Shown one piece after another: positions 43,991-62,778 of a DNA stretch of 64,000 nucleotides. Both the position numbers and the translations under genes were made by a program. The DNA comes from a virus (Duplodnaviria; Caudoviricetes). The notes beneath the pieces were generated by a model. It was not told the origin of the DNA and ran no database searches. It saw nothing but the letters and a program-made list of their open reading frames with translations. The stretch's first letter is position 1. The number at the start of each line of letters is the position of its first letter. Where the stretch lies: the IMG/VR virus record IMGVR_UViG_3300009183_004565; one strand, written 5' to 3'.

Positions 43991-46651
43991 ATGAGTTACA
44001 TTGACGCCTTGTACGACAGAAATGCAGACCGTATCCACATTGTGGAACGAGTCAACGATGAACGAGTATATCGAGAATATCCAGCCAATCACATATTTTA
44101 CTACGATGACCCACGTGGGAAGTATCGCACCGTATACGGAACTCCAGTAAGTAGATTCTCTAGTCGTTCAAATAAAGAATATCAAAAAGAGTTACGCATT
44201 AACAGTAACAAACGTCTTTGGGAATCGGATATCAATCCTGTATTCCGTTGCCTTGAAGAAAACTATTCTGGAACAACCTCTCCAAAACTACACACGGCAT
44301 TCTTTGACATTGAGGTTGACTTTGATCCAGTAAAAGGATTTAGTAAGCCCGAAGATCCGTTTAATCCAATTACTGCTATTTCCATTTATATGGATTGGTT
44401 GGACAAAATGGTTACATTGGTTATTCCGCCAAAGAGCTATAGTTGGGAGACTGCACAAGAAATTTGCAATCAATTTGATAACTGTTTCTTATTTGAACGT
44501 GAACAAGATCTACTTAGTACATTCTTGGATCTCATTGACGATGCAGATATACTAAGTGGCTGGAACTCAGAAGGCTTTGATATTCCGTACATGACCATGC
44601 GTATTACTCGTGTGTTGAGCAAAGATGATACACGTAGATTCTGTTTGTGGGGGCAACTACCCAAGCAACGTACATTCGAACGCTTTGGTGCAGAGAACTT
44701 GACCTTTGACTTGATTGGTCGTGTGCATATGGACTATATGCAACTGTATCGTAAGTACACATATGAAGAACGTCACAGTTATTCACTTGACGCCATTGGT
44801 GAATATGAACTAGACGAGCGTAAAACACAATACGAAGGTACACTGGATCAACTGTACAACAAAGACTTTCCCGAGTTTATCAAGTATAATCGACAAGATA
44901 CTATGCTTGTTGCCAAACTAGATAAGAAATTACGATTCCTAGATCTAGCCAATGAACTTGCACATGATAATACTGTGCTACTGCCCACTACTATGGGTGC
45001 AGTGGCAGTTACCGAGCAGGCAATTATTAATGAAGCACATCAACGTGGTATGGTAGTACCTAACAGGAAAGGTAGAGATGATCAAGGTGACACGCAAGCG
45101 GCAGGTGCCTATGTTGCTTTTCCCAAAAGGGGCATGCACGACTGGATCGGAGCCATTGACATCAACTCGCTCTATCCCTCGGCTATTAGAGCCCTTAACA
45201 TGGCGCAAGAAAGTATTGTTGGGCAACTCCGACCAATAATGACAGACAAATATATTCAAGATAAAATGACTGCAGGCAGCAGTTTTGCTGATGCCTGGGA
45301 AAACATGTTTGGTAGTCTTGAGTATACTGCGGTAATGGCAGGAGAGCCAGGAACTGAAATTACCGTTGACTGGGAAGCCGGCGGATCGGATGTAATGAGT
45401 GCTGCTGATATATGGAGATTAATCTTTGACTCAAATAAACCTTGGATGCTTAGTGCAAACGGCACAATCTTTAGCTACGAACAAAAAGCCATTGTACCCG
45501 GATTACTGGAACGATGGTACGCGGAACGAAAAGAGCTCCAGGCAAAGAAAAAGGAATCCACAACCGACGAAGACAAAGCCTTCTGGGACAAACGACAACT
45601 TGTCAAGAAGATTAACCTTAACAGTCTCTACGGAGCAATCCTTAATCCTGGATGTAGATTTTTCGACAAAAGGATTGGTCAAAGCACTACTCTCACTGGA
45701 CGAATCATTGCTAGGCACATGGATGCATATATCAATGAGTGCATCATGGGGGAATACGACCATGTGGGCGAAAGCATCATCTATGGAGACACTGACTCAT
45801 GTTATTTTACAGCTTGGCCGGCTATCCGAAGTGAAGTTGAATCAGGACGAATGGAATGGAATAAAGAAATTTGTGCCCAACTGTACGACACCATTGCGGA
45901 ACAAGTTAACGACAGCTTCCCAGCATTTATGGAACGAGCTTGCCATGTGCCGAGGTCTATGGGTGGACTCATTAAAGGTGGTCGCGAACTCGTGGCCTCC
46001 AAAGGGCTCTTTATTAAAAAGAAGCGATATGCAGTCCTCATATATGATCTCGAAGGAGTCAGGCTTGACAGTCATGGCAAGCCCGGCAAGGTCAAGGCTA
46101 TGGGTCTTGACCTAAAGCGTTCAGACACGCCCAAGGTTGTGCAAGACTTCTTGAGTGAACTGTTAACTGCTGTGCTAACTGGTGCAGCACGGGAAGAAAT
46201 ATACGATCGTGTTCGTGAATTTAAAATAGCATTCCAAGACCGACCTGCATGGGAAAAAGGTACACCTAAACGTGTAAACAACTTGACCAAGTATGGCAAA
46301 GAAGAAGAACGTCTAGGCCGTGCTAACATGCCCGGACATGTTCGTGCTGCTCTTAACTGGAACAATCTACGTCGTATGCATGGCGATCAATACAGCTTGG
46401 CCATTGTTGATGGTATGAAAACCATTGTTTGTAAATTAAAAGATAATCCGTTAGGATATACTAGTGTTGGTTATCCCACAGATGAAACTCATATTCCGCA
46501 ATGGTTTAAGGATTTACCTTTTGATGATGGACTCATGGAAGCCACTATTGTAAATCAGAAGGTAGAAAATCTATTAGGTGTACTAGAGTGGGATATTCCC
46601 AATCATACTGATATCAAAACAACATTTGATAGCTTGTTTAGTTTTGAGTAA
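43991..46651 (+). CDS. Family B DNA polymerase with 3'-5' exonuclease (T4 gp43-like)
   Basis: FFDIEV (ExoI), WNSEGFDIPY (ExoII), YN.QD (ExoIII), DINSLYPS, K..LNSLYG, YGDTDS, KKRY. Confidence 0.97.
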   Translation: MSYIDALYDRNADRIHIVERVNDERVYREYPANHIFYYDDPRGKYRTVYGTPVSRFSSRSNKEYQKELRINSNKRLWESDINPVFRCLEENYSGTTSPKLHTAFFDIEVDFDPVKGFSKPEDPFNPITAISIYMDWLDKMVTLVIPPKSYSWETAQEICNQFDNCFLFEREQDLLSTFLDLIDDADILSGWNSEGFDIPYMTMRITRVLSKDDTRRFCLWGQLPKQRTFERFGAENLTFDLIGRVHMDYMQLYRKYTYEERHSYSLDAIGEYELDERKTQYEGTLDQLYNKDFPEFIKYNRQDTMLVAKLDKKLRFLDLANELAHDNTVLLPTTMGAVAVTEQAIINEAHQRGMVVPNRKGRDDQGDTQAAGAYVAFPKRGMHDWIGAIDINSLYPSAIRALNMAQESIVGQLRPIMTDKYIQDKMTAGSSFADAWENMFGSLEYTAVMAGEPGTEITVDWEAGGSDVMSAADIWRLIFDSNKPWMLSANGTIFSYEQKAIVPGLLERWYAERKELQAKKKESTTDEDKAFWDKRQLVKKINLNSLYGAILNPGCRFFDKRIGQSTTLTGRIIARHMDAYINECIMGEYDHVGESIIYGDTDSCYFTAWPAIRSEVESGRMEWNKEICAQLYDTIAEQVNDSFPAFMERACHVPRSMGGLIKGGRELVASKGLFIKKKRYAVLIYDLEGVRLDSHGKPGKVKAMGLDLKRSDTPKVVQDFLSELLTAVLTGAAREEIYDRVREFKIAFQDRPAWEKGTPKRVNNLTKYGKEEERLGRANMPGHVRAALNWNNLRRMHGDQYSLAIVDGMKTIVCKLKDNPLGYTSVGYPTDETHIPQWFKDLPFDDGLMEATIVNQKVENLLGVLEWDIPNHTDIKTTFDSLFSFE

Positions 46652-47673: not shown

Positions 47674-48405
47674 ATGCGAGATTACTTACTCGATATAGTA
47701 TCACACACTCATAGTTTGGGTGTTATTGATTTAGTTAAAATTACCGGTACTGATTCGTTGACTCTTGTTAACGCAGTTGGCGAAGAACGTGTGGCTATTG
47801 TGGAAGCACAATTTCATAATCCTGTTCCAGAGTTTATGGGTACCTTTGGTATGCCTAATCTGGGCAAACTTAATACCATTCTTAATATTCCTGAGTACAA
47901 GGAAGATGCCAAACTGTCTATTATCTCTAAAGACGTCGAAGGTGTCAAGACACCCGAAGGCATTCATTTTGAAAACAAAGAAGGAGATTTTAAAAATAGT
48001 TATCGATTCATGAGTGCCAATGTAGTAAACAACACTTTGCAAACAGTTAAGTTTAAAGGTGTTAAATGGGGAGTAGAAATTGAACCCAGCGTGACTTCGA
48101 TACAGAAACTTCGATTTCAAGCACAAGCCAATAGTGAAGAAACAAGTTTTATTGCCAAAGTTGAAAATGGTAATTTAGTATTCTATTTTGGTGATCATAG
48201 TAGTCATGCTGGTAACTTTGTGTTTGCACACGATGTAGCAGGAACATTGACCAAAGCATGGCATTGGCCAATTGCTGCTGTAATTAGTATTTTGGCATTG
48301 CCTGGTGATAAAATGATTAGATTCAGTGACGAAGGTGCAGCTCAAATTACGGTGGATTCTGGATTAGCCGTTTATAATTATATCTTGCCAGCACAAACCA
48401 AGTGA
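47674..48405 (+). CDS. Putative sliding clamp (gp45/PCNA-like)
   Basis: 243 aa, beta-rich two-part pattern, clamp-sized, near polB, with a clamp loader in the window; no decisive motif. Confidence 0.5.
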   Translation: MRDYLLDIVSHTHSLGVIDLVKITGTDSLTLVNAVGEERVAIVEAQFHNPVPEFMGTFGMPNLGKLNTILNIPEYKEDAKLSIISKDVEGVKTPEGIHFENKEGDFKNSYRFMSANVVNNTLQTVKFKGVKWGVEIEPSVTSIQKLRFQAQANSEETSFIAKVENGNLVFYFGDHSSHAGNFVFAHDVAGTLTKAWHWPIAAVISILALPGDKMIRFSDEGAAQITVDSGLAVYNYILPAQTK

Positions 48406-49668: not shown

Positions 49669-50309
49669 AATTAATAAAATACTGGTACGCGGACTCTCTA
49701 ATAGATCCAGATCAAAAATTTTGGTATCTTCCAATATATAAAAATGCCAGCACTAAGATTACCTCATGTTTAAAAAGAAAGAATTGGGATACACTAATTC
49801 GCACCAATATAATCAACGAAGATAAGTTTGTTAATAAATCTGTGCAATTTGCAATACTTCGCGACCCATACGAGCGTTGGATCTCTACTTATGTTTCTTA
49901 TATTAAAAATCCTATATTTGATCAATCTTCTTTGAATTCTCTGTTAGCATCAAAAAATAAAGATGATTTTGTTGAATTGCTATTTAATCGTGCACCTATT
50001 CAAGAATTTGATATGTATACCAATTTACAATCTGTAGCACTTTTAGATCATCCAGACTTAAAAAAAATTAACTTTTTTTGGCTCAATGGTCAGACTGGAT
50101 ATCAATTAAATAAATGGCTTCAGTCTCATAATGAAATAACATCATTGAATAACAGTATAGAAAACGGGATTGATAAAAAAGACCCACTATACCGAGAAGT
50201 AATTTCTTTTTTATTTAATTACAAGAATCATAAAATTAAAAACAAAATAATGGATTATTTACAACCAGACTACGATTTTATAAGCGGAATTAATTTTTAT
50301 GCAAGATAA
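49665..50309 (+). CDS. Sulfotransferase-family protein 3
   Basis: LPIYKNASTKI and LRDPYERWIS. Confidence 0.75.
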   Translation: MKLIKYWYADSLIDPDQKFWYLPIYKNASTKITSCLKRKNWDTLIRTNIINEDKFVNKSVQFAILRDPYERWISTYVSYIKNPIFDQSSLNSLLASKNKDDFVELLFNRAPIQEFDMYTNLQSVALLDHPDLKKINFFWLNGQTGYQLNKWLQSHNEITSLNNSIENGIDKKDPLYREVISFLFNYKNHKIKNKIMDYLQPDYDFISGINFYAR

Positions 50310-51846
50310 TTTAACAAGTAAACAAAATGATTACGCAGTATTCTTACCTGCTATCTCGGGCTTCTATGCAACTTTTATAGGAAAGCAGCGTGTTAACAAC
50401 GACTATGTTGACCCTGCACGTTTTCCTGTAGGACTAACTGACTTAGAGCAAATGAATTGGCTTAACAGTCAGCAATCTTGGTTTCCGTATCGCTGGAGTT
50501 TGTATTCAGGTGGTCATGCCAATTTGGATTTAACCAAAGACGATCCAAGCGAGGACATGGTTCGTAAACGCGAACCGGGTACATTCATGTTAGGTGACTC
50601 AGGTGGATTCCAAATTGCCAAGGGTTTATGGGAAGGTGATTGGAAAGCCAACTCAGGTTGCCCCAAGGCTCAAGGTAAACGCGAAGCGGTACTTAAATGG
50701 CTGGATGGCATTGCTGATTACGGCATGATTCTTGATATACCTACCTGGGTAACTAAAGATCCCAAGGCCAGCGCCGCCTGTCAAATCAAAACAGTTCCTG
50801 AAGCTATTGCAGCAACAAAGTTTAACAATGAATACTTTATTGCAAACAGAAAAGGCAAAGACAACGGTGGTGCCAAGTTCTTAAATGTGTTACAAGGTTC
50901 TACACACACCAATGCAGAATCTTGGTATCAAGAAATGAAAAAGTATTGCGATCCTGCACAGTATCCTGGCAAACACTTTGATGGGTGGGCAATGGGCGGA
51001 CAGAACATGTGTGATGTACATTTAATCCTAAAGCGATTGATTGCATTACGTTACGACAATTTACTACAAGAAGGTGTTCATGATTGGATGCACTTCTTGG
51101 GTACTTCAAAACTAGAGTGGGCATTACTACTCACAGATATACAGAGATCAATACGCCGATATGTTAACCCTTCTTTTACTATTTCCTTTGACTGTGCTAG
51201 TCCTTTCCTTGCTACGGCGAATGGACAAGTCTACCACGAAATTGACCTTACCCCAGGACAAAAATGGTCCTATAGAATGAATCCCAGTGCCGACGATAAA
51301 AAATATTCCACAGATACTCGCAGTTACAAAGACGGCACTATACAAGACGGTTTCTGGAAACATTTTGACGAAAGTCCGATTAGCCAACGTTTACAAATGA
51401 AAGATATTTGTATATATAAACCCGGCGACCTAAATAAGAATGGCAAGGAAGGCAAGACTTCTTGGGATAGTTTCAGTTATGCATTGCTAATGGGGCATAA
51501 CGTATGGACGCACATTGAATCAGTTCAACGTGCCAATCGTGAATATGATGCCGGCAACTATCCTGCTATGATGCAGTATAGTGGCCCCGGACAAGATAAG
51601 TTTAAAGATATCATTGATAGTATTTTTGCTGCGCCTGACAAACAAACAGCACTTGATATCGTTGAACATTATAGTAAGTATTGGATGGAAATTGTTGGCA
51701 CTAGAGGCAACAAAGGTAAAAAAGCGTTGAATTCTGAAACAATGATGGATGTGCATTTTGAATTAGAAGGCAGTAGTGTTAAAGTAGAGAAGTCCAAGAA
51801 AGAAAAACCCTTGGCAATTTTAAATCCAGATCTTTTTGAGGTATAA
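50299..51846 (+). CDS. dpdA: TGT-superfamily guanine transglycosylase, DpdA-like (DNA-acting inferred)
   Basis: MLGDSGGFQI, MILDIP, NVLQG, GWAMGG, HFLG, FDCASP, MGHN are TGT catalytic/binding motifs; the CxCxxC Zn motif of tRNA TGTs is not visible; folE/queD/queE nearby. Confidence 0.8.
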   Translation: MQDNLTSKQNDYAVFLPAISGFYATFIGKQRVNNDYVDPARFPVGLTDLEQMNWLNSQQSWFPYRWSLYSGGHANLDLTKDDPSEDMVRKREPGTFMLGDSGGFQIAKGLWEGDWKANSGCPKAQGKREAVLKWLDGIADYGMILDIPTWVTKDPKASAACQIKTVPEAIAATKFNNEYFIANRKGKDNGGAKFLNVLQGSTHTNAESWYQEMKKYCDPAQYPGKHFDGWAMGGQNMCDVHLILKRLIALRYDNLLQEGVHDWMHFLGTSKLEWALLLTDIQRSIRRYVNPSFTISFDCASPFLATANGQVYHEIDLTPGQKWSYRMNPSADDKKYSTDTRSYKDGTIQDGFWKHFDESPISQRLQMKDICIYKPGDLNKNGKEGKTSWDSFSYALLMGHNVWTHIESVQRANREYDAGNYPAMMQYSGPGQDKFKDIIDSIFAAPDKQTALDIVEHYSKYWMEIVGTRGNKGKKALNSETMMDVHFELEGSSVKVEKSKKEKPLAILNPDLFEV

Positions 51847-52053
51847 ATGTACAAAGCTAAAATTAAACAACTTGAAGAATCTCATCGTGTGTTAAACAAA
51901 CAGATAGACGACATGGAACGTAATCATCCTCATGTTGAAGTTGATCGACTTGCTGAAATGAAAAAGAAAAAACTACTTGTTAAAGACGAAATCAGCCGTC
52001 TTAATAAGTTACAATGGGATCACGATCATGAAACGGTACACGGCGATGAATAG
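51847..52053 (+). CDS. DUF465/YdcH-like small coiled-coil protein
   Basis: L...H..L..QI..........L..MKKKKL..KDEI..L. Confidence 0.75.
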   Translation: MYKAKIKQLEESHRVLNKQIDDMERNHPHVEVDRLAEMKKKKLLVKDEISRLNKLQWDHDHETVHGDE

Positions 52054-52555
52054 AAACGGACATAACAATGCAAGCCTTTTTGTAGGCACTGAAGTAGAAC
52101 ATACACCTGCATTTGATTTAAAGACACTATTTGTTGTTGATATACAATCTATAGAATTAATCGAAGCCGCATACCTTGCACATAAATGCGAACACATATA
52201 CTTTGGTGCTAATCAAAGTTTTGCACCCAACGGTACTGCTAATTATTTTACTTTATGGGAAGAAATGATTACCCATTTTCTTAAGAAAGATCGTTTGTGT
52301 ACGTTGGATTTTGATGTATCCCATGTTGAATATGTATTGGAATATGGGTTCACCGAATATCATAATTTTATCCCAATGATTTCGGTTAAATTGCCCTATA
52401 TACAACAATTAGGATATAATGCTATAATTAAGCTCGACGATAAAGATTTTAATGCAACCAATCCTGGTGTATGGTGTCATAGTGTACACAAGTTACAAAA
52501 TCGTCGAGTGTTCACTGACTGGTCTAAATACACCAAAGACGAGATTATTAAATGA
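52046..52555 (+). CDS. Conserved phage protein of unknown function in the deazaguanine locus
   Basis: F.G.EVEHTPA...KTLFV, HIYFGANQSF, K.DD.DF.ATNPGVWCH. Confidence 0.6.
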   Translation: MNRNGHNNASLFVGTEVEHTPAFDLKTLFVVDIQSIELIEAAYLAHKCEHIYFGANQSFAPNGTANYFTLWEEMITHFLKKDRLCTLDFDVSHVEYVLEYGFTEYHNFIPMISVKLPYIQQLGYNAIIKLDDKDFNATNPGVWCHSVHKLQNRRVFTDWSKYTKDEIIK

Positions 52556-52980
52556 ATCAAGAACAAAGACAAACAGCAGATAGAATTATAGAACGTGCCG
52601 AAAGACAAATTTGGGTAACTTTTAGGCGCGAAGGTATCCATAAATACCCAGCAGCATTGGAGGAACCACAACTTGCGGATGTATCTTTTCTTGGCTATCC
52701 TCATCGCCATATCTTTCATTTCCGGGTGTCAATTGATGTGTTCCACAATGACCGGGACATCGAATTCATCCAATTCAAACGCTGGCTCGAAGGGCTGTAT
52801 AGTGCTAGTACACTCATTTTAGATTATAAAAGTTGCGAAATGATTGCTGATGACTTATATGTCCAAATTGCTAGTAAATTTCCCGGACGTAATGTTATAA
52901 TCAACGTGAGTGAAGACGGCGAAAATGGCTGTACTATCACTTACAATACACACCAACCTTATCAATCAATGAAAATTTAA
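52552..52980 (+). CDS. QueD-like T-fold protein (DpdL-like candidate)
   Basis: EGIH.YP, LGYPHRHIFHF (LxxxHRHxF), EF, SCEMIA, VSEDGENG. Confidence 0.6.
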   Translation: MNQEQRQTADRIIERAERQIWVTFRREGIHKYPAALEEPQLADVSFLGYPHRHIFHFRVSIDVFHNDRDIEFIQFKRWLEGLYSASTLILDYKSCEMIADDLYVQIASKFPGRNVIINVSEDGENGCTITYNTHQPYQSMKI

Positions 52981-52981
52981 T

Positions 52982-53356
52982 ATGGTTAAAGCTCCTCCAT
53001 GTATAGTATTAGGGTGCGGAAGATCTTCTTCTTACATTAATAGAAACCAAGATGGCACAAAAAAATATCGAAATACCTGTAGCAAACATCATAAAACGAA
53101 TTTAAACATGTCTAAAAAAGATTATTGCGAAAATATTGATGGTCGCCTTGGATTTAAATGTACCACTACTATCTTAGGTCCGTATCAATTACAAGTAGAT
53201 CACGTTGACGGAGATCGTTACAATAACGATCCAAAAAATCTTCAGACTTTGTGTGCTTGTTGTCACGCTCATAAAACGCATAAAGAAAAAAATCATCTTA
53301 GACGTTACAATAAAAAAATACAAACTACATTTAATTCAATTTTCAACTTTCAATAA
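52982..53356 (+). mobile_element. Free-standing HNH endonuclease gene (putative homing endonuclease)
   Basis: QVDHVDGD..NN...NLQTLCACCH..KT; N-terminal C...C...C.KH zinc motif. Confidence 0.8.
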
Positions 53357-53373: not shown

Positions 53374-54297
53374 ATGCCCCGAGTAAAAAAGTCTGCTGCA
53401 CTAGATGCCGAGCACGAAAAACTCATTGCGGTTTTAAAGTTTACACCACGTACCTATAAAATTTCATTGTGGGGATATGGTGGCGAATCTGTTATGGGTA
53501 CCGTACCTCGCGAAATCTACGATTACTTTAAACAGCGTAGACTTGATGTTAGTGGCTTTGCATGGGACAGCGACTACGCCGAAGAAAACAATATTCCCGA
53601 AGCGATGTGGCCATTCTCTCCTGGTTCATGGTACGAGTGTGATGATATAGCACATGTCAATGGTGTTGTATTAGATAGTGGCACTGTACACATTGAAGAT
53701 GAAAACGGTGACGAAATTCTCCAGTGTGGGATTGATGCTTTCCAAGACGAAGACTGTCCTGAATTAGATTACACAGACGAAACCTTTATTGACGATAAGC
53801 CGCCAGGCACTATAGTATTCATTGGCAACAGTAACGAAAAAGGTACGTTCTTTGAAGGCAGTATTGATCTTAGTGCCCCGTTTGATATCAACAAACTAAC
53901 TTTCAAAATTGAAGACGTAGACGGCAGTGAAGTTGTCTGCGGAATAGAATACGACGGCGAGTCGATTGATAACTATGGTGGCGATACCACTGGCAAGAGT
54001 TCAGAATTTGGATTCTATGTTGCAGGATCAATGAAGAATGGTAAGTGGGAACGTTATCGTAACGAAGATGATTGCACTTACGAAATGACTGCATGGTTTC
54101 CAAAAAACACCAAACCTGTGCGCGAAGGTGTTTATGAAATTGATGCAGGTAATAAAGAAAAATGGCCAAACTTTAGTCCAACTACAGCACGATGGACAGG
54201 CACACGATGGCTCAGTGTCTGGGCAGATGACACTCCCGAAACACCAGAAGTAAAAATAAAACAATGGCGTGGCATTGCCTACGATCCAAACAACTAA
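53374..54297 (+). CDS. Acidic hypothetical protein
   Basis: 307 aa, AAGGAG RBS. Confidence 0.65.
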   Translation: MPRVKKSAALDAEHEKLIAVLKFTPRTYKISLWGYGGESVMGTVPREIYDYFKQRRLDVSGFAWDSDYAEENNIPEAMWPFSPGSWYECDDIAHVNGVVLDSGTVHIEDENGDEILQCGIDAFQDEDCPELDYTDETFIDDKPPGTIVFIGNSNEKGTFFEGSIDLSAPFDINKLTFKIEDVDGSEVVCGIEYDGESIDNYGGDTTGKSSEFGFYVAGSMKNGKWERYRNEDDCTYEMTAWFPKNTKPVREGVYEIDAGNKEKWPNFSPTTARWTGTRWLSVWADDTPETPEVKIKQWRGIAYDPNN

Positions 54298-54319: not shown

Positions 54320-54538
54320 ATGGCCGCAGCATGGCTCAAGAAGTATCTAAAGATGAAACCCGAAGTCAATCAAATCTTTGAAGACCTCGAGAAATACAAA
54401 GAGTTTTGTGTAACATACGGTTACATCTACGACGAGCGTCACTTGTACAACGAAAAAACACCTTGGGGCGAGTTCGAACGTGTACAACGTGGCAAATGGC
54501 CCAAGATGAATTGGTATGCCAAGAAGGAACGTACCTAA
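54320..54538 (+). CDS. Hypothetical protein
   Basis: 72 aa, AGGAG RBS. Confidence 0.65.
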   Translation: MAAAWLKKYLKMKPEVNQIFEDLEKYKEFCVTYGYIYDERHLYNEKTPWGEFERVQRGKWPKMNWYAKKERT

Positions 54539-54542
54539 TTAA

Positions 54543-55088
54543 ATGAACGTTTTAACTTACGATCATGTACTCCCAACTTGGTTAGAGGAGTCTGGAGAAA
54601 ATCAGTTCTATAGATTTCCTTTAGAATATAATCATCGCACAAAAGATGAAAATCCTCCATTTTTTGGTAAGTGTCTATACAACAAAAAAACAGGAGTATA
54701 TGTTCAATCTCCTTATTTTGTAGATGCTTTGTGTGATTGTATTAGGTATGACCTTGTGAATAAAATTGACCCAAGTGCAACATTCAATGAATTTCAAAGA
54801 GTGATTGTAAACGGGCAGATAGGTGGTATGTCTCCTGGTAGACATCCTGACTATGATGATCGTAATATGTGGACTGCTGTTTATTTCCTGTTAGGAAATT
54901 CAGGAGACCTAGTATTTTATCTTGATAACACTACTAAGAAGATCAAGTTTAGAAAACATAGATTGGTAGTGTTTAATAGTCGTATAGAACACGAAGCACT
55001 AGCACCCAATGAAGGTGATTGGAGAATGAGCATTGGTATCAATTGGTATATGGATACCAAATTTAATGAAATTGTAAAAGGAAAATAA
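54543..55088 (+). CDS. 2OG-Fe(II) oxygenase
   Basis: HPD (HxD), TAVYFL...SG.L.F, LVVFNSRIEHEA (distal H), RMSI (2OG-binding R). Confidence 0.8.
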   Translation: MNVLTYDHVLPTWLEESGENQFYRFPLEYNHRTKDENPPFFGKCLYNKKTGVYVQSPYFVDALCDCIRYDLVNKIDPSATFNEFQRVIVNGQIGGMSPGRHPDYDDRNMWTAVYFLLGNSGDLVFYLDNTTKKIKFRKHRLVVFNSRIEHEALAPNEGDWRMSIGINWYMDTKFNEIVKGK

Positions 55089-56281
55089 TGCGTAAATTAT
55101 GGTATATGGGTCTAGAACCCTATAAAGCACGATACACTCTACAGTTACAAGAGTGGAATCGTGCTGTATTTGACCGCCGTGGCATCAACTACGAAATAGT
55201 AGAAGGCGAAACGCTAAGTAACGACCAAGCCATTGTAACCGGACAAGTGCTAGATGCACATGGTCGTACATACTTTGGTATGAGCCAACTGATGAATCTT
55301 GTTCGCAAGATGAAAGCAGGAGAAGTTACCAATGAAGATGTTGTATACTTCGAAGACATGTTTCAACCTGGTATCGAGAGCTTGCCTTATATCATGCAGC
55401 AGTGCGATCCTGCTATGCGTCCCAAGATTGCTGTTCGTTGTCTTGCACAAAGCATTGACCCAGATGACTTTGTTCATGTCTGGGGCATGCAACAGTGGAT
55501 GGGGCATTATGAAAAGATGGTAGATAGTTTTGCCGATATCGTTCTTGCCAGTAACGAAGAAATGGTTATGCACATGAAGGTTGCAGGATGGCAGGCTCCT
55601 GTGTATAATATTAGTGGACTGGCATTTGGCAAAGAGGAAGTACGTGGTCGTGTGGCCGGTGCACTAAAGCCATTCCATGGTCGTAAGTATCGTGTGGGAT
55701 TTGCTGCCCGATGGGATCAAGAGAAGCAACCAGACTTTTACATGGATCTAATAGAAGAATATCACCGTCGTGCCAGTTTTGTGTTTAATGATTGGCCCAA
55801 TGTTGAGTTCTGCGTATTCAGTGGCAGTAAACTAAAAAGCAATAACGACAGTTACATGGCTCGTACTCGACGTATGCAGGCTGAAGGTAAACTTGTCGTT
55901 CATGAGGACTTGGAAAAAAATGATTATTATAATTTACTCAATGATACTCGTGTGTTATTCAATTGCGCTTTACAAGACTGGGTTAGTAACACTGTCAGCG
56001 AAGCCGACACTCTGGGATGTAATGTGTTATATCCCGCATATCGTAGTTTTCCTGAGTCTTTTGCTAACGATCATGAAAGACTTTACATTCCTTGGAGTAT
56101 AGATGACGCAATTACTAAACTTAATAAGCTATTGGAGCATCCTCATCCCGGTATGGGCACCATTAGTGATTGGACTGGGGGTACCATTGATCGCATTGTG
56201 GACATTCTAGAAGGCAAGGGCGAACAGTGGCAGCGCATGAGTACCGACTATCGTAAACATACACACGAGCACAAGTATTAA
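55088..56281 (+). CDS. GT-B fold glycosyltransferase
   Basis: FAARWDQEKQP, K.DYY..L....V.FN.ALQDWVS....EA...GC..LYP.YRSFPE. Confidence 0.75.
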   Translation: MRKLWYMGLEPYKARYTLQLQEWNRAVFDRRGINYEIVEGETLSNDQAIVTGQVLDAHGRTYFGMSQLMNLVRKMKAGEVTNEDVVYFEDMFQPGIESLPYIMQQCDPAMRPKIAVRCLAQSIDPDDFVHVWGMQQWMGHYEKMVDSFADIVLASNEEMVMHMKVAGWQAPVYNISGLAFGKEEVRGRVAGALKPFHGRKYRVGFAARWDQEKQPDFYMDLIEEYHRRASFVFNDWPNVEFCVFSGSKLKSNNDSYMARTRRMQAEGKLVVHEDLEKNDYYNLLNDTRVLFNCALQDWVSNTVSEADTLGCNVLYPAYRSFPESFANDHERLYIPWSIDDAITKLNKLLEHPHPGMGTISDWTGGTIDRIVDILEGKGEQWQRMSTDYRKHTHEHKY

Positions 56282-57255
56282 TGAAAATAGTTATCACAGG
56301 AGGATGTGGCTACATTGGTAGTCACATCGCACGAGCACTAAAACAACACAATGCAGATAATTGTGTATACATTATTGACCGTGTGCGTAGAGATCATACA
56401 CTTCAAGATGTAGACGGCTACCTACACGAAGATTATGCCAGCAAGAACAGTTTGCTATGGATTACGGAACTAGAACCTGATGTTATTGTGCATTGTGCAG
56501 GCAGCAGTCTTGTTGGCGAGAGTATGACCAATCCTGCTGAGTATTATGAAAACAATATTGCAAAGACTATTACTCTATTGTCGCATGTAAAAGATCTACG
56601 TAAGAAACCTTTGATACTGTTTAGTAGTAGTGCCAGTGTGTACGGCAATCCTGCGACTGTTCCGGTATATGAGTCAGATCCCAAACTGCCTATCAGTCCA
56701 TATGGTGTTAGCAAACATGTTACTGAACGACTATTAAGTGACTATCATGCAGCATACGGTGTTCCTAGTGTGTGCTTTAGATATTTTAATGCAGCCGGAG
56801 CAGAACCTTTTGCACATGACCTTGGGCAAGCACCTGGTGCCAGTCATATCGTTGCTAGAATACTAGAAGCCAAACTTGCTGGGAAATCGTTTACGCTTAA
56901 TGGTGCAGATTATAACACACCGGATCGTACTTGTATTCGTGATTACATACACGTATGGGATTTGGCTGACGCACACATACGTGCCATTGAGTGGATGAAC
57001 AATGAGAATGAGAAACGTGCTGCAGTGATGAATCTTGGTACTCAACATGGTATTAGCAATCAAGAGATTATTGATTATGTAACAGTAAACTACGGTGGCA
57101 TTGATGTTGTAGTTGGGCCAAGGCGCCCCGGAGATCCAGATCGACTTGTTGCTGATGCAAGTGTAGCATATGCTTTATTAAAATGGAAACCTGTCTACTC
57201 AACGATCAATCAAATTGTTGATAGTGCATACAAATGGTATACTCGTGAGCTTTGA
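56281..57255 (+). CDS. galE: UDP-glucose 4-epimerase
   Basis: TGGCGYIGSH, SSSASVYG, PYGVSK (YxxxK), FRYFNAAG, RDYIHV.DLA.AH, R.GD. Confidence 0.9.
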   Translation: MKIVITGGCGYIGSHIARALKQHNADNCVYIIDRVRRDHTLQDVDGYLHEDYASKNSLLWITELEPDVIVHCAGSSLVGESMTNPAEYYENNIAKTITLLSHVKDLRKKPLILFSSSASVYGNPATVPVYESDPKLPISPYGVSKHVTERLLSDYHAAYGVPSVCFRYFNAAGAEPFAHDLGQAPGASHIVARILEAKLAGKSFTLNGADYNTPDRTCIRDYIHVWDLADAHIRAIEWMNNENEKRAAVMNLGTQHGISNQEIIDYVTVNYGGIDVVVGPRRPGDPDRLVADASVAYALLKWKPVYSTINQIVDSAYKWYTREL

Positions 57256-57829
57256 TCGCATATTGGAGTTTGAACAAGCACTGGCCGAATACACAGGTGC
57301 GCCATACGCAATCATGACTGATTGTTGTACTCATGCTATTGAGTTGTGTCTAAGATTTCAAAAGCCCACTCATTGTGCATTTACTGCTTTTACCTATCTG
57401 TCTGTGCCAATGACCATGCACAAACTAGGAATTGAGTACAGATTGATTCCCGAAGTATGGACTGGCGAATATCAATTCCACGGAACCACAATTTGGGATA
57501 GCGCACGTAGGCTAGAGCGAGGAATGTATCGAGCAGGACAGATGCAATGTCTCAGCTTCGGTTACACTAAGCCTTTACAAATAGGCCGTGGTGGTGCTAT
57601 ACTGTTAGACAATGAACAAGCATACAACACTATAACGGAACAACGATATGATGGGCGCAAATTATCAGTTACACCCTGGCAGGAACAAAAAACCTTCATG
57701 GTGGGCTATCATTATAGACCGACTCCGGAAGAAGCTGCGATTGGATTAATAAAATTGCGCGATGTTAATGAACTGCCTAAATATCACGAATATCCTGATC
57801 TAAGAGATATTAAAATTATTGGAGAATAA
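57245..57829 (+). CDS. Short DegT/DnrJ-family PLP aminotransferase-like protein
   Basis: FE..LAEY.GA.YA....CCTHA, P..Y.S.P, WDSA, CLSFG..KPL..G.GGAIL, A.IGL.KL; only about 194 aa. Confidence 0.7.
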   Translation: MSFDRILEFEQALAEYTGAPYAIMTDCCTHAIELCLRFQKPTHCAFTAFTYLSVPMTMHKLGIEYRLIPEVWTGEYQFHGTTIWDSARRLERGMYRAGQMQCLSFGYTKPLQIGRGGAILLDNEQAYNTITEQRYDGRKLSVTPWQEQKTFMVGYHYRPTPEEAAIGLIKLRDVNELPKYHEYPDLRDIKIIGE

Positions 57830-57830
57830 G

Positions 57831-58661
57831 TTGACCACAAAAGAATTTACACCAAATCCAGTATTAAACGAAACACCTGATAAAGAATTTGTTCCTATGG
57901 AACTGGAATCTATGTATGTGGCTTTACCACAAAAGGTATATGTGAAAGCTGGCGAAGCTGCTGCCGCTAAACAATCATATTTGTCGGATGCTATTCGTGC
58001 CAGGATGAAACGTGACGGTAAAAGATACTGGGCAGGAGATAACATCAGTGACTATCTAGCGGACAGTGACAAAGAACATCTAATCAGCGAAGCCGCAGAA
58101 GCATTTGAACTAGTACTAGACCGTTTGCTGATTGATCGCGAAAATGATCCTAACAGTCGAGGTACAGCACGACGCCTGGCTAAAATGTACTTCAACGAAA
58201 TAATGGCAGGTAGATATGAAACGGCACCAGACGCAACGGCTTTTCCAAATGATTCGGAGGAAAGATATGAAGGTATGCTTGTGGTTAGAAGTGAACTTCG
58301 CAGTATGTGTAGCCATCATCACCAGCCCGTTACTGGTGTTGCTTATATTGGTATTATCGCCGCTAATAAACTTATCGGTCTTAGTAAGTATACTCGTATT
58401 GCTCAGTGGTGCGCTCGTCGTGGCACACTACAAGAAGAGCTGTGTAATGATATCGCTAGAGAGATTATGAAGGCCACTGATGCTAAAGATGTAGCAGTAT
58501 ATGTACAAGCGATACATGGATGTTGCGAAAATCGCGGCATTATGGCACATAGTTCGTTAACTCAAACTACAGTATTAAAGGGAACATTCAAAGATGATCC
58601 TCATACTAAGAAGGAATTCTTCGACAACATTAAACTACAACAAGAATTTGCACCAAGGTAA
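57831..58661 (+). CDS. folE: GTP cyclohydrolase I with N-terminal extension
   Basis: TARRLAKMY, SMCSHHHQP, GLSKY.RI, QE.L...I, HGCC..RG, KEF; TTG 57831 follows GGAGA. Confidence 0.95.
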   Translation: MTTKEFTPNPVLNETPDKEFVPMELESMYVALPQKVYVKAGEAAAAKQSYLSDAIRARMKRDGKRYWAGDNISDYLADSDKEHLISEAAEAFELVLDRLLIDRENDPNSRGTARRLAKMYFNEIMAGRYETAPDATAFPNDSEERYEGMLVVRSELRSMCSHHHQPVTGVAYIGIIAANKLIGLSKYTRIAQWCARRGTLQEELCNDIAREIMKATDAKDVAVYVQAIHGCCENRGIMAHSSLTQTTVLKGTFKDDPHTKKEFFDNIKLQQEFAPR

Positions 58662-59049: not shown

Positions 59050-59244
59050 ATGTATATGAAACTCAACGACAAGCTAGTAAAATGCAACGATCATTTTACT
59101 GTCTATATGTACGACAATGGCTATATGGTTGAAATTGGTGGACGTGACGACAACGACGAATGGGTTACTGCCAAAGTTCTTTGCACAGATTTTAAAGAAC
59201 TAACCAATCTTATCGAAGAAGCTACCATAATGGAACGTGACTAA
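59050..59244 (+). CDS. Small hypothetical protein
   Basis: AAGGAG RBS; 64 aa. Confidence 0.65.
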   Translation: MYMKLNDKLVKCNDHFTVYMYDNGYMVEIGGRDDNDEWVTAKVLCTDFKELTNLIEEATIMERD

Positions 59245-59777
59245 TGAAAAAGTTAATTATCTCGGATGCTGAATTTAAAAAATTAGTTCACAAGCTCTGC
59301 AGAGATATTGCCAATAGCGATTGGCGACCTGACTATGTTGTAGGTTTAACTCGTGGTGGACTTACTGCTGCTGCCATGATCAGTCATTATTTTGATGTTC
59401 CTATGGAAACATTGAAGCCAAGATCGGAAAGCAATTGCTGGATGGCTGAAGATGCATTTGGATATATTCCAGACGGTCCGCTACGTGAAGGCATAGATAA
59501 ACGCAGTGACGCTACATTTAAAAAGAAAATTCTTGTTGTCGATGACATTAACGATACCGGTTCTACACTTGAATGGATACGTGAAGATTGGCAATCAAGT
59601 TGTTTGCCCAACGACGAATCTTGGAAATATGTATGGAACAAGAACGTGCGTTTTGCTGTATTAATCAATAACGAATCCAGTAACTATGAGCATGTGGATT
59701 ATTCAGGTCGTAACATTAATAAACTTGATGATCCGTGTTGGGTAGTGTTCCCCTGGGAAAATTGGTGGGAGGCATGA
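59244..59777 (+). CDS. Type I phosphoribosyltransferase (Gpt-like)
   Basis: YVVGLTRGGL, ILVVDDINDTGSTL (PRPP loop), WVVFPWE. Confidence 0.9.
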   Translation: MKKLIISDAEFKKLVHKLCRDIANSDWRPDYVVGLTRGGLTAAAMISHYFDVPMETLKPRSESNCWMAEDAFGYIPDGPLREGIDKRSDATFKKKILVVDDINDTGSTLEWIREDWQSSCLPNDESWKYVWNKNVRFAVLINNESSNYEHVDYSGRNINKLDDPCWVVFPWENWWEA

Positions 59778-60119: not shown

Positions 60120-60689
60120 ATGATCAATGTAGGAATATATCTAGAATCTAAGCCATTTAATGATAATTGGCCAAAAATTAAAATCTATCATAACAATAGT
60201 CTACTCGACGATGTAATTTGTCATCAGTCACTAGAGTTACATTATCAAATTAAACCTAGCGTTGATAACCTTCTCTCAATTGAGATGTACGGAAAAAGAT
60301 TCGGCGATGGCGGAATATATGATGTGGACAGTAACGGACAAGGACAAGAAATTCAAATTAAAGATATTACTTTTGATGATGTGTCAATTGATCACTTGTT
60401 GTCAAAAGTTGAATTTGAAACCCACTGGACTGAACACCAGCTTTCTTCACACAACGAAGAATTTAGATCTAAATATAATAGATATCAATCCAACGGTATG
60501 ATAGTCTTTAACGGAAGACTGAATTTTAATTTTTCAACTCCTATATATGATTTTTTAATTGATAAAAAGTATAAAGTTGATCATAACAAAGACATTGCTT
60601 ATTTTAGTAACAGCACGGAACTATTTAATTTTCATCTTGGATTAAGTAAATTAGAAGAAATTAAAAAAATTATTACAGAAAATGAATAA
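60120..60689 (+). CDS. Hypothetical protein, paralogous to 32723-33199
   Basis: TAAGTA-4nt-ATG start; shared motifs with the 32723 ORF. Confidence 0.6.
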   Translation: MINVGIYLESKPFNDNWPKIKIYHNNSLLDDVICHQSLELHYQIKPSVDNLLSIEMYGKRFGDGGIYDVDSNGQGQEIQIKDITFDDVSIDHLLSKVEFETHWTEHQLSSHNEEFRSKYNRYQSNGMIVFNGRLNFNFSTPIYDFLIDKKYKVDHNKDIAYFSNSTELFNFHLGLSKLEEIKKIITENE

Positions 60690-62187
60690 AAAAGTTTTAG
60701 TATTATCAGTTCCGCGACTCGAACCACATCGCCCCCCAATTAGTGCTACTCTTGTTGCTACTGTATGCAAAAATCACGGTTGTGATGTTAAGTTACGAGA
60801 TCTAAATATTGAATTTTATCATTATTGTAAATTAAATAATATAGAATATCAAAAATTTGATCCAATTTGGGATAGATATGTAGAACCATCAAATTTAGAA
60901 CTATCACATATACACACTCATATAGATAATTTTATTGCAACTGAAGATTTGCATTCTTACGATATCATTATGATCAGTGTATTTGGCTCAAGTAGCCATT
61001 ACTTCACTGAAATGTTATTAAAAAAAATTGCAGTAGATAGATCTTATAAAATTTTATTAGGTGGTTCGGGAGCATTTGTGTCTATTATGAATCGTGGGCA
61101 TAATTCTTTTGTTGTGGAGATGCAAAAACAAAATCTAATAGACGATTTTATAAAAGGCGAGTGCGAAGAATCCTTAAAATATTATTTAGACGGTAAAGAA
61201 TATCCAGGAATTAATAACTATGATCCTGTGCAGATTGATGATTTAGATTCATTACCGTTAATTGATTATAGTTTTGTTGACTTAGATGCTTATGAATATC
61301 TCACTGAAACTAAAGATGTTTATGTAGAAGGTAGTAGGGGATGTGTACGTAAATGTACTTATTGTGATGTTCAGAAATTTTGGCCAAAATATCGTTTCAG
61401 AAGTGGTCAGCATATTGCACACGAGCTTATTAACAATTACGAAAAATTTGGCATTAAAAAATTTTACTTTACTGATAGCTTAGTTAACGGAAGTTTAAAA
61501 TCATTCAATCAGATGTGCGATATTCTTGCTAATTACCCATATAGCAAAGAAATTAGCTGGGGAGGACAATTTATTTTCAGAAATGAAAGAACTGTGCCAC
61601 CGGAGCATTTTGAAATGATCGCTAAGGCCGGCGGTACTAATACTTTTTACGTAGGAATAGAAACTGGCAGTGATCAAGTTAGAAAACAAATGGGTAAAAA
61701 TTTTACCAACGAAGATATTAGTTATCAACTTGAAGAATTTAAAAAGAATAAATTGAAATGTACTTTTTTAATGTTTCCTGGCTATATTACAGAAACTGAA
61801 AAGGATCATCAAGACACATTAGATATGTTTTTAAGATGGCAAAAGTATGTAGCCAGTGGAACTATCAATGGTTTAGAATTAGGTAGTCCTTTGATAGTTC
61901 TCGAAGGAACCCCACTAGCTAGTATGATTGATGAGTATCAAATTGCATTTTTAGAGAGTGATAGAATTACTACTGGTAATTTCTGGGTATCAAAATTAAA
62001 TCCAAGTTTTGATTTTGAGCAGCGAGCTATTAGGCAAATCAGACTATACGAAGAAGCTGCAAAATATAAATGGCCTATTTGGAGATTTGAATCAAGAGCT
62101 GAAGAATTAAAACAAACTCTAATTAGATTTTATGAAATAAAAGAAAAAAATCCAACATATAAGATAACACCAATTAAAATTAATTAA
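60682..62187 (+). CDS. Cobalamin-binding (class B) radical SAM protein
   Basis: N-terminal B12-binding-like domain (ISVF, ILLGG, GECE), SRGCVRKCTYC, FTDSL.NG, GIETGS..V...MGK. Confidence 0.85.
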   Translation: MNKKVLVLSVPRLEPHRPPISATLVATVCKNHGCDVKLRDLNIEFYHYCKLNNIEYQKFDPIWDRYVEPSNLELSHIHTHIDNFIATEDLHSYDIIMISVFGSSSHYFTEMLLKKIAVDRSYKILLGGSGAFVSIMNRGHNSFVVEMQKQNLIDDFIKGECEESLKYYLDGKEYPGINNYDPVQIDDLDSLPLIDYSFVDLDAYEYLTETKDVYVEGSRGCVRKCTYCDVQKFWPKYRFRSGQHIAHELINNYEKFGIKKFYFTDSLVNGSLKSFNQMCDILANYPYSKEISWGGQFIFRNERTVPPEHFEMIAKAGGTNTFYVGIETGSDQVRKQMGKNFTNEDISYQLEEFKKNKLKCTFLMFPGYITETEKDHQDTLDMFLRWQKYVASGTINGLELGSPLIVLEGTPLASMIDEYQIAFLESDRITTGNFWVSKLNPSFDFEQRAIRQIRLYEEAAKYKWPIWRFESRAEELKQTLIRFYEIKEKNPTYKITPIKIN

Positions 62188-62280: not shown

Positions 62281-62778
62281 ATGCAACCTGTTGTATATAA
62301 ATTTACTAGTACCAAAGAGTATCACGACGCCTTTCCTTGCGCTTACCGGCAATGGCGTGCCGATAGTCATTGTAATCTAATACACGGCTATTCATTTAGT
62401 ATGAAGTTCTACTTTGGTACTAACGACTTAGACGTTCGTAATTGGGCAGCTGACTACGGTGGACTTAAAGAACTTAAAAAGATTCTTGAAGATCAATTTG
62501 ACCACACATTAATTGTAGCCGAGGACGATCCCGAACTTGCAACATTTAAGTTGTTACAAGAACGGAACATGGCCAAGATTGTCATACTACCACGTTTAGG
62601 CTGTGAAGGCCTAGCTGACTCGCTGTACAAATATGTGAATGGTGTTTATATTCCTGATATGTGGGGACCTAGTGAAGCTGAACGCTTATGGTGTTATCGT
62701 GTAGAGGTTAGAGAGACACAAGCAAACATGGCGTACCGAGAAGGTCACCGTGAATGGAACGAGGATCTGTTTGCGTAA
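62281..62778 (+). CDS. queD: 6-carboxy-5,6,7,8-tetrahydropterin synthase
   Basis: FPCAYRQW...SHC..IHGY, DYG.LK...K.LE..FDH, GCE.LA, V.V.ET. Confidence 0.88.
   Translation: MQPVVYKFTSTKEYHDAFPCAYRQWRADSHCNLIHGYSFSMKFYFGTNDLDVRNWAADYGGLKELKKILEDQFDHTLIVAEDDPELATFKLLQERNMAKIVILPRLGCEGLADSLYKYVNGVYIPDMWGPSEAERLWCYRVEVRETQANMAYREGHREWNEDLFA

Follow-up and report, generated by a model that had tools for sequence, protein, structure and literature searches.

A glycosyltransferase conserved beside 7-deazaguanine genes in a giant freshwater phage and its relatives: a possible route to a sugar-bearing purine in DNA

What does a glycosyltransferase (GT) do in the middle of a phage gene cluster for the synthesis of 7-deazaguanine? 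The question is raised by a 64,000-nt window of DNA, the minus strand of a 144-kb IMG/VR contig (IMGVR_UViG_3300009183_004565, estimated 41% complete) from an uncultured T4-related giant freshwater phage whose near-complete relatives measure 354-374 kb. In this window, genes for an oxygenase, the GT, the epimerase GalE and a short DegT-like protein (mini-DegT) run straight into folE, and the initial annotation took them for one base-glycosylation module. The layout itself is confirmed by the coordinates of the open reading frames (ORFs): the oxygenase/GT and GT/GalE junctions are both one-base TAATG overlaps, the DegT-like frame overlaps the 3' end of galE, and the mini-DegT stop (TAA, 57827-57829) is followed by the folE start (TTG, 57831), with a GGAG 8 nt before it. 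Abutting codons alone do not imply a shared function, because close packing is the norm along the whole phage operon and not peculiar to these four genes. Although real and closely spaced, the four genes form a composite rather than one unit or a four-step pathway: the GT is its core, GalE often goes with the GT, mini-DegT is a trait specific to the giant freshwater clade, and the oxygenase is a strain-specific insert. This separation into core, clade-specific and strain-specific layers is what is new here. The module idea survives in the part that ties the GT to 7-deazaguanine genes, by a neighbourhood conserved in many unrelated phages, and is given up in the part that made the four genes one unit. 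We give about even chances to the reading that the phage DNA carries a sugar-bearing base derived from 7-deazaguanine, made by the GT and GalE within a QueC-less cluster of the DpdL type.

The link between the GT and the deazaguanine genes is strongly supported by their association across phages. We used two sets of 80 loci: a close set, with GTs 77-87% identical to that of the window (67 loci with at least 3 kb upstream and 43 with at least 6 kb downstream, which serve as denominators), and a diverse set, with GTs 32-47% identical to the representative P0199, which includes phages of ~50-100 kb with family A polymerases. DpdL is found near the GT in 67/67 close loci and within 8 kb of it in 76/80 diverse ones; FolE is present in 41 of the 43 close loci and 57 of the 80 diverse loci, and QueE in 66 of the latter. 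Two distant representatives, P0266 and P0159, brought up no viral loci when used singly as queries; loci were obtained with an alignment of distant members. The clusters are located among replication genes, and the members that accompany the GT in the window are the DpdA-like p515, DpdL, FolE, QueD, QueE and a purine phosphoribosyltransferase (PRTase). Several cultured phages of different lineages have the GT adjoining DpdL and a DpdA-type gene: Synechococcus phage BUCT-ZZ01, Acidovorax phage ACP17, Xanthomonas phage BUDD, the Pseudomonas jumbo phage PA5oct, and Sinorhizobium phage Phosso. The GT lies ~3 kb from DpdL in Burkholderia phage BCSR5, and the GT and DpdL matches are ~1.6 kb apart in the related Xanthomonas phage X1. 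Between BUCT-ZZ01 and the window the GT is 63% identical, and FolE, QueD, DpdL and PRTase only 28-36%. The GT family is absent from the DpdL-carrying phages phiST, RHph_I1_18 and Ahp1. The pairing is thus conserved where the GT occurs and missing from some DpdL phages, which makes the GT a core, optional-by-lineage member of DpdL-type clusters.

The cluster around the four genes has the composition of a DpdL-type pathway to 7-deaza-2'-deoxyguanosine (dDG). It holds DpdL, FolE, QueD, a QueE-like ORF and a DpdA-family transglycosylase, and lacks QueC: neither the contig nor any of three complete close relatives gave a match above cut-off. The DpdL motif conforms to LxxxHRHxF, the signature given by Cui et al. 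2023 (PMC10516641), and the protein is 57% identical to DpdL of ACP17. PRTase, QueD and the QueE-like ORF lie 3' of FolE, the last at the window edge and with a weak Pfam match; PRTase homologues occur within the same cluster in BUCT-ZZ01, PA5oct and 13 of the 80 diverse loci. The presumed transglycosylase p515 matches no Pfam family, TGT included, and no PHROG. It has the motifs GDSGGFQ, LQGS and HFLGT, is 34% identical (1e-85) to a 540-aa protein of PA5oct, and its family aligns with the DpdA3-type family of ACP17, BUDD and BUCT-ZZ01 (hhalign probability 96%, E 3e-9), the DSGGFQ motif included. The closest described system is that of Cellulophaga phage phiST, in which dDG fully replaces dG; DpdL and DpdA3 were proposed there, and no glycosyltransferase was mentioned (Cui, Hutinet et al., NAR 2023; PMC10516641). 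Both systems have FolE, QueD, QueE, a DpdL with LxxxHRHxF and a divergent DpdA-type transglycosylase, with no QueC and with replication genes near. Whereas phiST makes plain dDG and has neither a member of the GT family nor GalE, the window adds the GT, GalE, PRTase and tailoring genes to a larger, p515-type transglycosylase.

The assignment of the GT comes from its family rather than from its own sequence. The match to PF13524 (Glyco_trans_1_2) is weak (21.3 bits against a cut-off of 25), and a single-sequence search of PDB chains gave no match; placement was possible only through the family profile, which reaches GT4 chains of the PDB at 2e-4, and through fold search. PF00534 is matched by 41 of 66 family members (E <= 0.01). 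The AlphaFold2 (AF2) model built on the alignment of these 66 sequences (pLDDT 95) has a GT-B fold, with two Rossmann-like domains and an interdomain cleft, and resembles the retaining GT4 enzymes sucrose-phosphate synthase (SPS), MshA, BshA, PglA, SenB and BGluT with VIA Z of 24-27 (over 300-350 residues for SPS, MshA, BshA and PglA). R208 and K213 are invariant (66/66), D297 is kept in 64/66, and position 305 is E or D in all 66 (D297-x7-E305); a D/E-x7-E motif together with an Arg and a Lys that bind the nucleotide diphosphate is what we take to be the GT4 signature. Judged from the model, the protein belongs to the GT-B/GT4 type and has kept its donor-site residues, and sugar transfer is predicted for it. 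BshA, MshA, SenB and BGluT (PDB 6n1x, 3c4q, 8jjn and 5ze7) share with it the whole-protein fold (Z 23-27), the motif and the Arg/Lys donor residues, but at 8-13% sequence identity, and the window GT differs from them in the invariant residues of its N-terminal acceptor domain (R15, D56, Q67, D90, D127 and E142) and in its phage DNA-modification context. The family is acidic, with a median pI of 5.7 and a pI of 5.0 for the N-terminal domain. The GT has more than 8,000 scored homologues in the protein database, the 120 best being 81-97% identical; clustering at 50% leaves 794 representatives that do not merge into wider GT4 families, the 655-aa P0159 among them having no recognisable extra domain.

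Resemblance to the DNA glucosyltransferases of T4 (AGT and BGT), which act on hydroxymethylcytosine (hmC), was also looked for. In the comparison by Foldseek and VIA, neither AGT nor BGT is among the 50 matches listed, although a kinship may still exist; a cyanophage protein named 'DNA alpha-GT' is found in BFVD, at rank 19 only and with a TM of 0.5. In common with the T4 enzymes, the window GT has a GT-B fold, is encoded by a phage, would transfer sugar in connection with a replaced base, and has host UDP-sugar as its presumed donor. The differences are that the window GT has no hydroxymethyl acceptor, that its target would be a purine, that its family is acidic, and that its closest folds are small-molecule GT4 enzymes.

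The supply of sugar nucleotide was attributed to GalE and DegT in the initial annotation, and the two proteins fare differently. GalE passes the equivalog cut-off of TIGR01179 (288.1 bits against 262.3) and matches PF01370 at 1e-45, which identifies it as a true UDP-glucose 4-epimerase and a genuine supplier of sugar nucleotides. It is present in 42 of 43 close and 30 of 80 diverse loci, and each set has 15 loci in which it follows the GT immediately. In PA5oct, a 172-aa N-terminal fragment of an NAD-dependent epimerase stands with PRTase between DpdL and QueE (L087:7645-8609); it looks like a decayed or split GalE of the same module.

The case of mini-DegT is less simple. It matches PF01041 (DegT_DnrJ_EryC1) with 67 bits against a cut-off of 19.8, but at profile positions 162-240 only, and is about half the usual length (194-204 aa, against ~360-390 aa for the full two-domain architecture): the C-terminal domain is missing, and the large domain is itself short of ~50 residues. 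The likely GTG start gives MSFDRIL, in agreement with the aligned homologues. A frameshifted full-length gene was considered and rejected, since translation in three frames reveals no C-terminal domain downstream. Homologues fill more than 7,400 clusters, and the 120 listed are of 174-204 aa, nearly all of 192-204 aa; because these are equally short, mini-DegT is not a broken gene. D95 (pyridine-binding) and K119, the Schiff-base lysine for pyridoxal phosphate (PLP), are invariant, and K119 aligns with the lysine mutated in 9bgr. The best PDB folds for the AF2 model (pLDDT 88) are the large domains of GDP-perosamine synthase, PseC and ArnB, although the model covers only ~40% of each target (TMt 0.34-0.42). 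With these DegT/DnrJ/EryC1 aminotransferases mini-DegT shares the lysine, the aspartate and the large-domain fold, and it differs from them by its half size and missing domain. It occurs in 32 of 43 close loci and 1 of 60 diverse ones. It is a conserved, reduced PLP enzyme, sugar-aminotransferase-like and nearly confined to the giant freshwater clade. The role of amino-sugar supplier is only partly supported, in view of the truncation, the restriction to the close clade and the absence from the block of a partner, such as a dehydratase, that forms a keto-sugar.

From these identities, folds, motifs and conserved neighbourhoods we infer the donor sugar, the acceptor and the arrival of the sugar in DNA as follows. 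FolE, QueD and QueE would lead to 7-carboxy-7-deazaguanine (CDG), on which DpdL would act. GalE most likely supplies a UDP-hexose such as UDP-galactose to the GT, and the GT most likely adds the hexose to the 7-deazaguanine-derived base. The DpdA-like p515 would swap the base for guanine in DNA, and glycosylation would take place either on the free base before this insertion or on the base already in DNA. TGT-family enzymes accept bulky 7-substituents. PRTase may, we suggest, salvage the released guanine, and mini-DegT and the oxygenase are best read as optional tailoring enzymes, clade-specific and strain-specific, respectively. Two published observations on phages that carry the GT speak for this reading. 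The DNA of PA5oct is resistant to restriction enzymes whose sites contain G, and this phage is a target of nucleases sensing hypermodified DNA (2025 preprint, PMC12191111). The dpdL and dpdA genes of ACP17 alone produced no dDG in E. coli, and the authors considered that other enzymes may be needed (PMC10516641).

A number of points weigh against a sugar on the deazaguanine of DNA. First, there is no hydroxyl group on 7-deazaguanine itself that would make an evident acceptor. Second, most diverse loci have no GalE. Third, DpdL function does not require the GT, since phiST, which lacks it, uses DpdL to make plain dDG. Fourth, the closest solved folds are small-molecule GT4 enzymes and the GT family is acidic, which suits a soluble acceptor better than DNA. 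Fifth, a clamp-docking tail of the DNA polymerase type was sought on the window GT and is not present; against action on a base within DNA, this and the acidic pI are weak hints.

The last two points also speak for the first alternative, in which the GT belongs to the deazaguanine pathway but acts on a soluble acceptor and the sugar never reaches DNA. The product could be a glycoside of CDG or of 7-deazaguanine (DG), formed transiently to help with decarboxylation or handling, or else a glycosylated by-product, pterin or deazapurine. Three traits favour such an acceptor: the nearest folds, which include LmbT and the pterin glucosyltransferase BGluT beside BshA, MshA and SenB, the acidic acceptor domain and the missing clamp tail. 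There is also a precedent in HuiG from the huimycin cluster of Kutzneria albida, which puts a sugar onto a free 7-deazaguanine-type base of the FolE/QueD/QueE route (PMC7439116; bioRxiv 10.64898/2026.04.15.718813). We liken HuiG to the window GT by the described reaction; it differs by its place in a secondary-metabolite cluster with no enzyme for insertion into nucleic acids, and its acceptor is the free base of O-methylated preQ0. We nevertheless consider a soluble end product unlikely, though far from negligible: the phage cluster has replication genes and a DpdA-like transglycosylase for neighbours rather than transporters or regulators, its diversified sugar-related neighbours fit a product exposed to host defence, and there is no evident reason for a phage to spend a UDP-sugar on a by-product.

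A second alternative is that the GT, GalE and the DegT-like protein are ordinary glycan genes, for glycosylation of the host envelope or of the virion, that merely happen to lie beside preQ-type genes. The GT4 fold is indeed typical of glycan synthesis. Yet the adjacency of the GT and DpdL is kept across lineages in which FolE and QueD are only ~30-35% identical, the 794 representatives of the family stay apart from the wider GT4 families, and the cluster has no genes for membrane proteins or lipid carriers. We regard a chance neighbourhood of this kind as very unlikely.

The oxygenase bears on a third alternative, the scheme put forward in the initial annotation, in which it would hydroxylate the deazaguanine or a pyrimidine and the GT would glycosylate the new hydroxyl, as in T-even hmC or base J. 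The enzyme is probably active, because the HxD pair and distal His of the iron triad (H101-x-D103, H150) and the Arg that binds 2-oxoglutarate (2OG; R161) are invariant in 14 homologues. Its sole Pfam match at E <= 0.01 is a weak one to PF13640 (2OG-FeII_Oxy_3; 24 bits against a cut-off of 27), so that no match to Tet_JBP was seen at this threshold; among PHROGs it matches phrog_274 (1e-19) and phrog_81, and neither its sequence nor its family profile has a sequence match in the PDB. These features suggest a prolyl-hydroxylase-like protein. Its homologues make up only 14 clusters among 5.8 billion proteins, in the same database that holds the GT homologues by the thousand; a scan of IMG/VR found no relatives, and it occurs in 0/80 close and 0/80 diverse loci, none of these 160 GT loci carrying it. 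The place that it occupies is a hypervariable swap slot. The small protein h72 precedes the GT in 77 of 81 loci searched (80 from IMG/VR and BUCT-ZZ01), the two are adjacent in ~40% of the close relatives, and in the others they are separated by genes of at least six families unrelated to one another. Occupants with a Pfam match in this slot (54539-55087 in the window; relatives L006, L007, L013, L036, L063 and L073) are a MazG-like pyrophosphohydrolase, a radical SAM protein, a fragment of a short-chain dehydrogenase/reductase (SDR), a CmcI-like sugar O-methyltransferase, and a nucleotidyltransferase with a cupin; two of the occupants in relatives are sugar-related. The oxygenase is one more occupant, a rare strain-specific insert. 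The one-base overlap with the GT and the kept HxD...H...R residues are what speaks for hydroxylation first. A GT that is conserved where the oxygenase is absent cannot depend on it, so the scheme is largely refuted as a general mechanism, and we hold it to be highly improbable. Scarcely more can be said for the remaining idea of the initial annotation, an independent second mark on another DNA base such as a pyrimidine, which found no support and which we consider most improbable: only the relatedness to T4 and an enzyme of the thymidylate-synthase family elsewhere in the phage recall it, the GT is not accompanied by any hydroxymethylase, kinase or methyltransferase, and its constant partner is DpdL.

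Table 1. Positions of the four genes, their cluster neighbours and other proteins of the window named in the text.
Feature	Position	Strand	Basis or remark
DNA polymerase	43991-46651		
h243	47674-48405		phrog_12062
p515, divergent DpdA/TGT-like, presumed DNA guanine transglycosylase	50299-51846	+	motifs, hhalign
p192	51977-52555		
DpdL, QueD paralogue, proposed CDG decarboxylase	52552-52980	+	LGYPHRHIF; phrog_17812
HNH endonuclease	52982-53356		
h307	53374-54297		
h72, small conserved protein preceding the GT	54320-54538	+	no family match
Oxygenase ORF	54543-55088	+	181 aa
GT ORF	55088-56281	+	397 aa
GalE ORF	56281-57255	+	324 aa
Mini-DegT ORF	57215-57829	+	204 aa from TTG 57215; likely start GTG 57245
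FolE, GTP cyclohydrolase I, first step of deazaguanine synthesis	57831-58661	+	PF01227 139 bits; NF006824 137 bits
Purine-type PRTase	59244-59777	+	PF00156 43 bits
B12-binding radical SAM enzyme	60682-62187		
QueD	62281-62778		

Other genes of the cluster deserve mention (Table 1). The very acidic orphan h307 lies upstream of h72 here and between the GT and GalE in ~20 relatives, and is therefore mobile within the cluster; it was considered as a second GT and rejected, having no kin in Pfam, PDB or Atlas. A homologue of p192 (L083:7326-7724; 27% identity, 3e-12) lies directly upstream of DpdA3 in ACP17, and the gene is found in 26 of the 80 diverse loci, as a second conserved partner of the cluster. 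In nearly all loci with a p515-type DpdA gene, the gene for h243 precedes it, immediately or with sulfotransferase-like genes interposed. The B12-binding radical SAM enzyme, which only 4 of the 80 close relatives have, looks like another candidate for accessory tailoring. The HNH endonuclease whose gene is inserted after dpdL has the C-terminal sequence TTFNSIFNFQ, nearly the same as the C-terminus of the DNA polymerase (TTFDSLFSFE), and this homing endonuclease may carry the presumed sliding-clamp docking tail of the polymerase. The C-termini of p515 (NPDLFEV) and QueD (NEDLFA) and the consensus end of the DpdA3-type family (LExLF) could likewise, to judge by these residues, be weak clamp-binding tails that link base exchange to the replication fork. 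In smaller phages with both GT and DpdL (L103:13347-14570; L108:12089-14710), DNA polymerase A is fused to an N-terminal uracil-DNA-glycosylase-like domain.

To our knowledge, the sugar-decorated bases of DNA are all pyrimidines (glucosyl- and arabinosyl-hmC, base J), and the 7-deazaguanine bases of DNA that we know of all carry small groups. Our literature searches found no paper describing a glycosylated 7-deazaguanine in DNA. The prediction is directly testable, because several cultured phages carry the GT. It is a tentative and somewhat doubtful extension of it that a glycosylated 7-deazapurine, the first sugar-bearing purine analogue in any genome, is part of the DNA of these giant freshwater phages, which form a very abundant clade, and of others such as PA5oct-like and ACP17-like phages, and that its sugar would be further aminated, oxidised or methylated by the enzymes swapped between strains in the slot, as a variable trait of an arms race. 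If the sugar does reach the base, the GT would be a candidate for the factor missing from the failed reconstitution of dDG with ACP17 genes, and it might be behind the G modification, of undefined nature, in PA5oct, a jumbo phage of P. aeruginosa. A glycosylated deazapurine would then join two protection strategies on one base.

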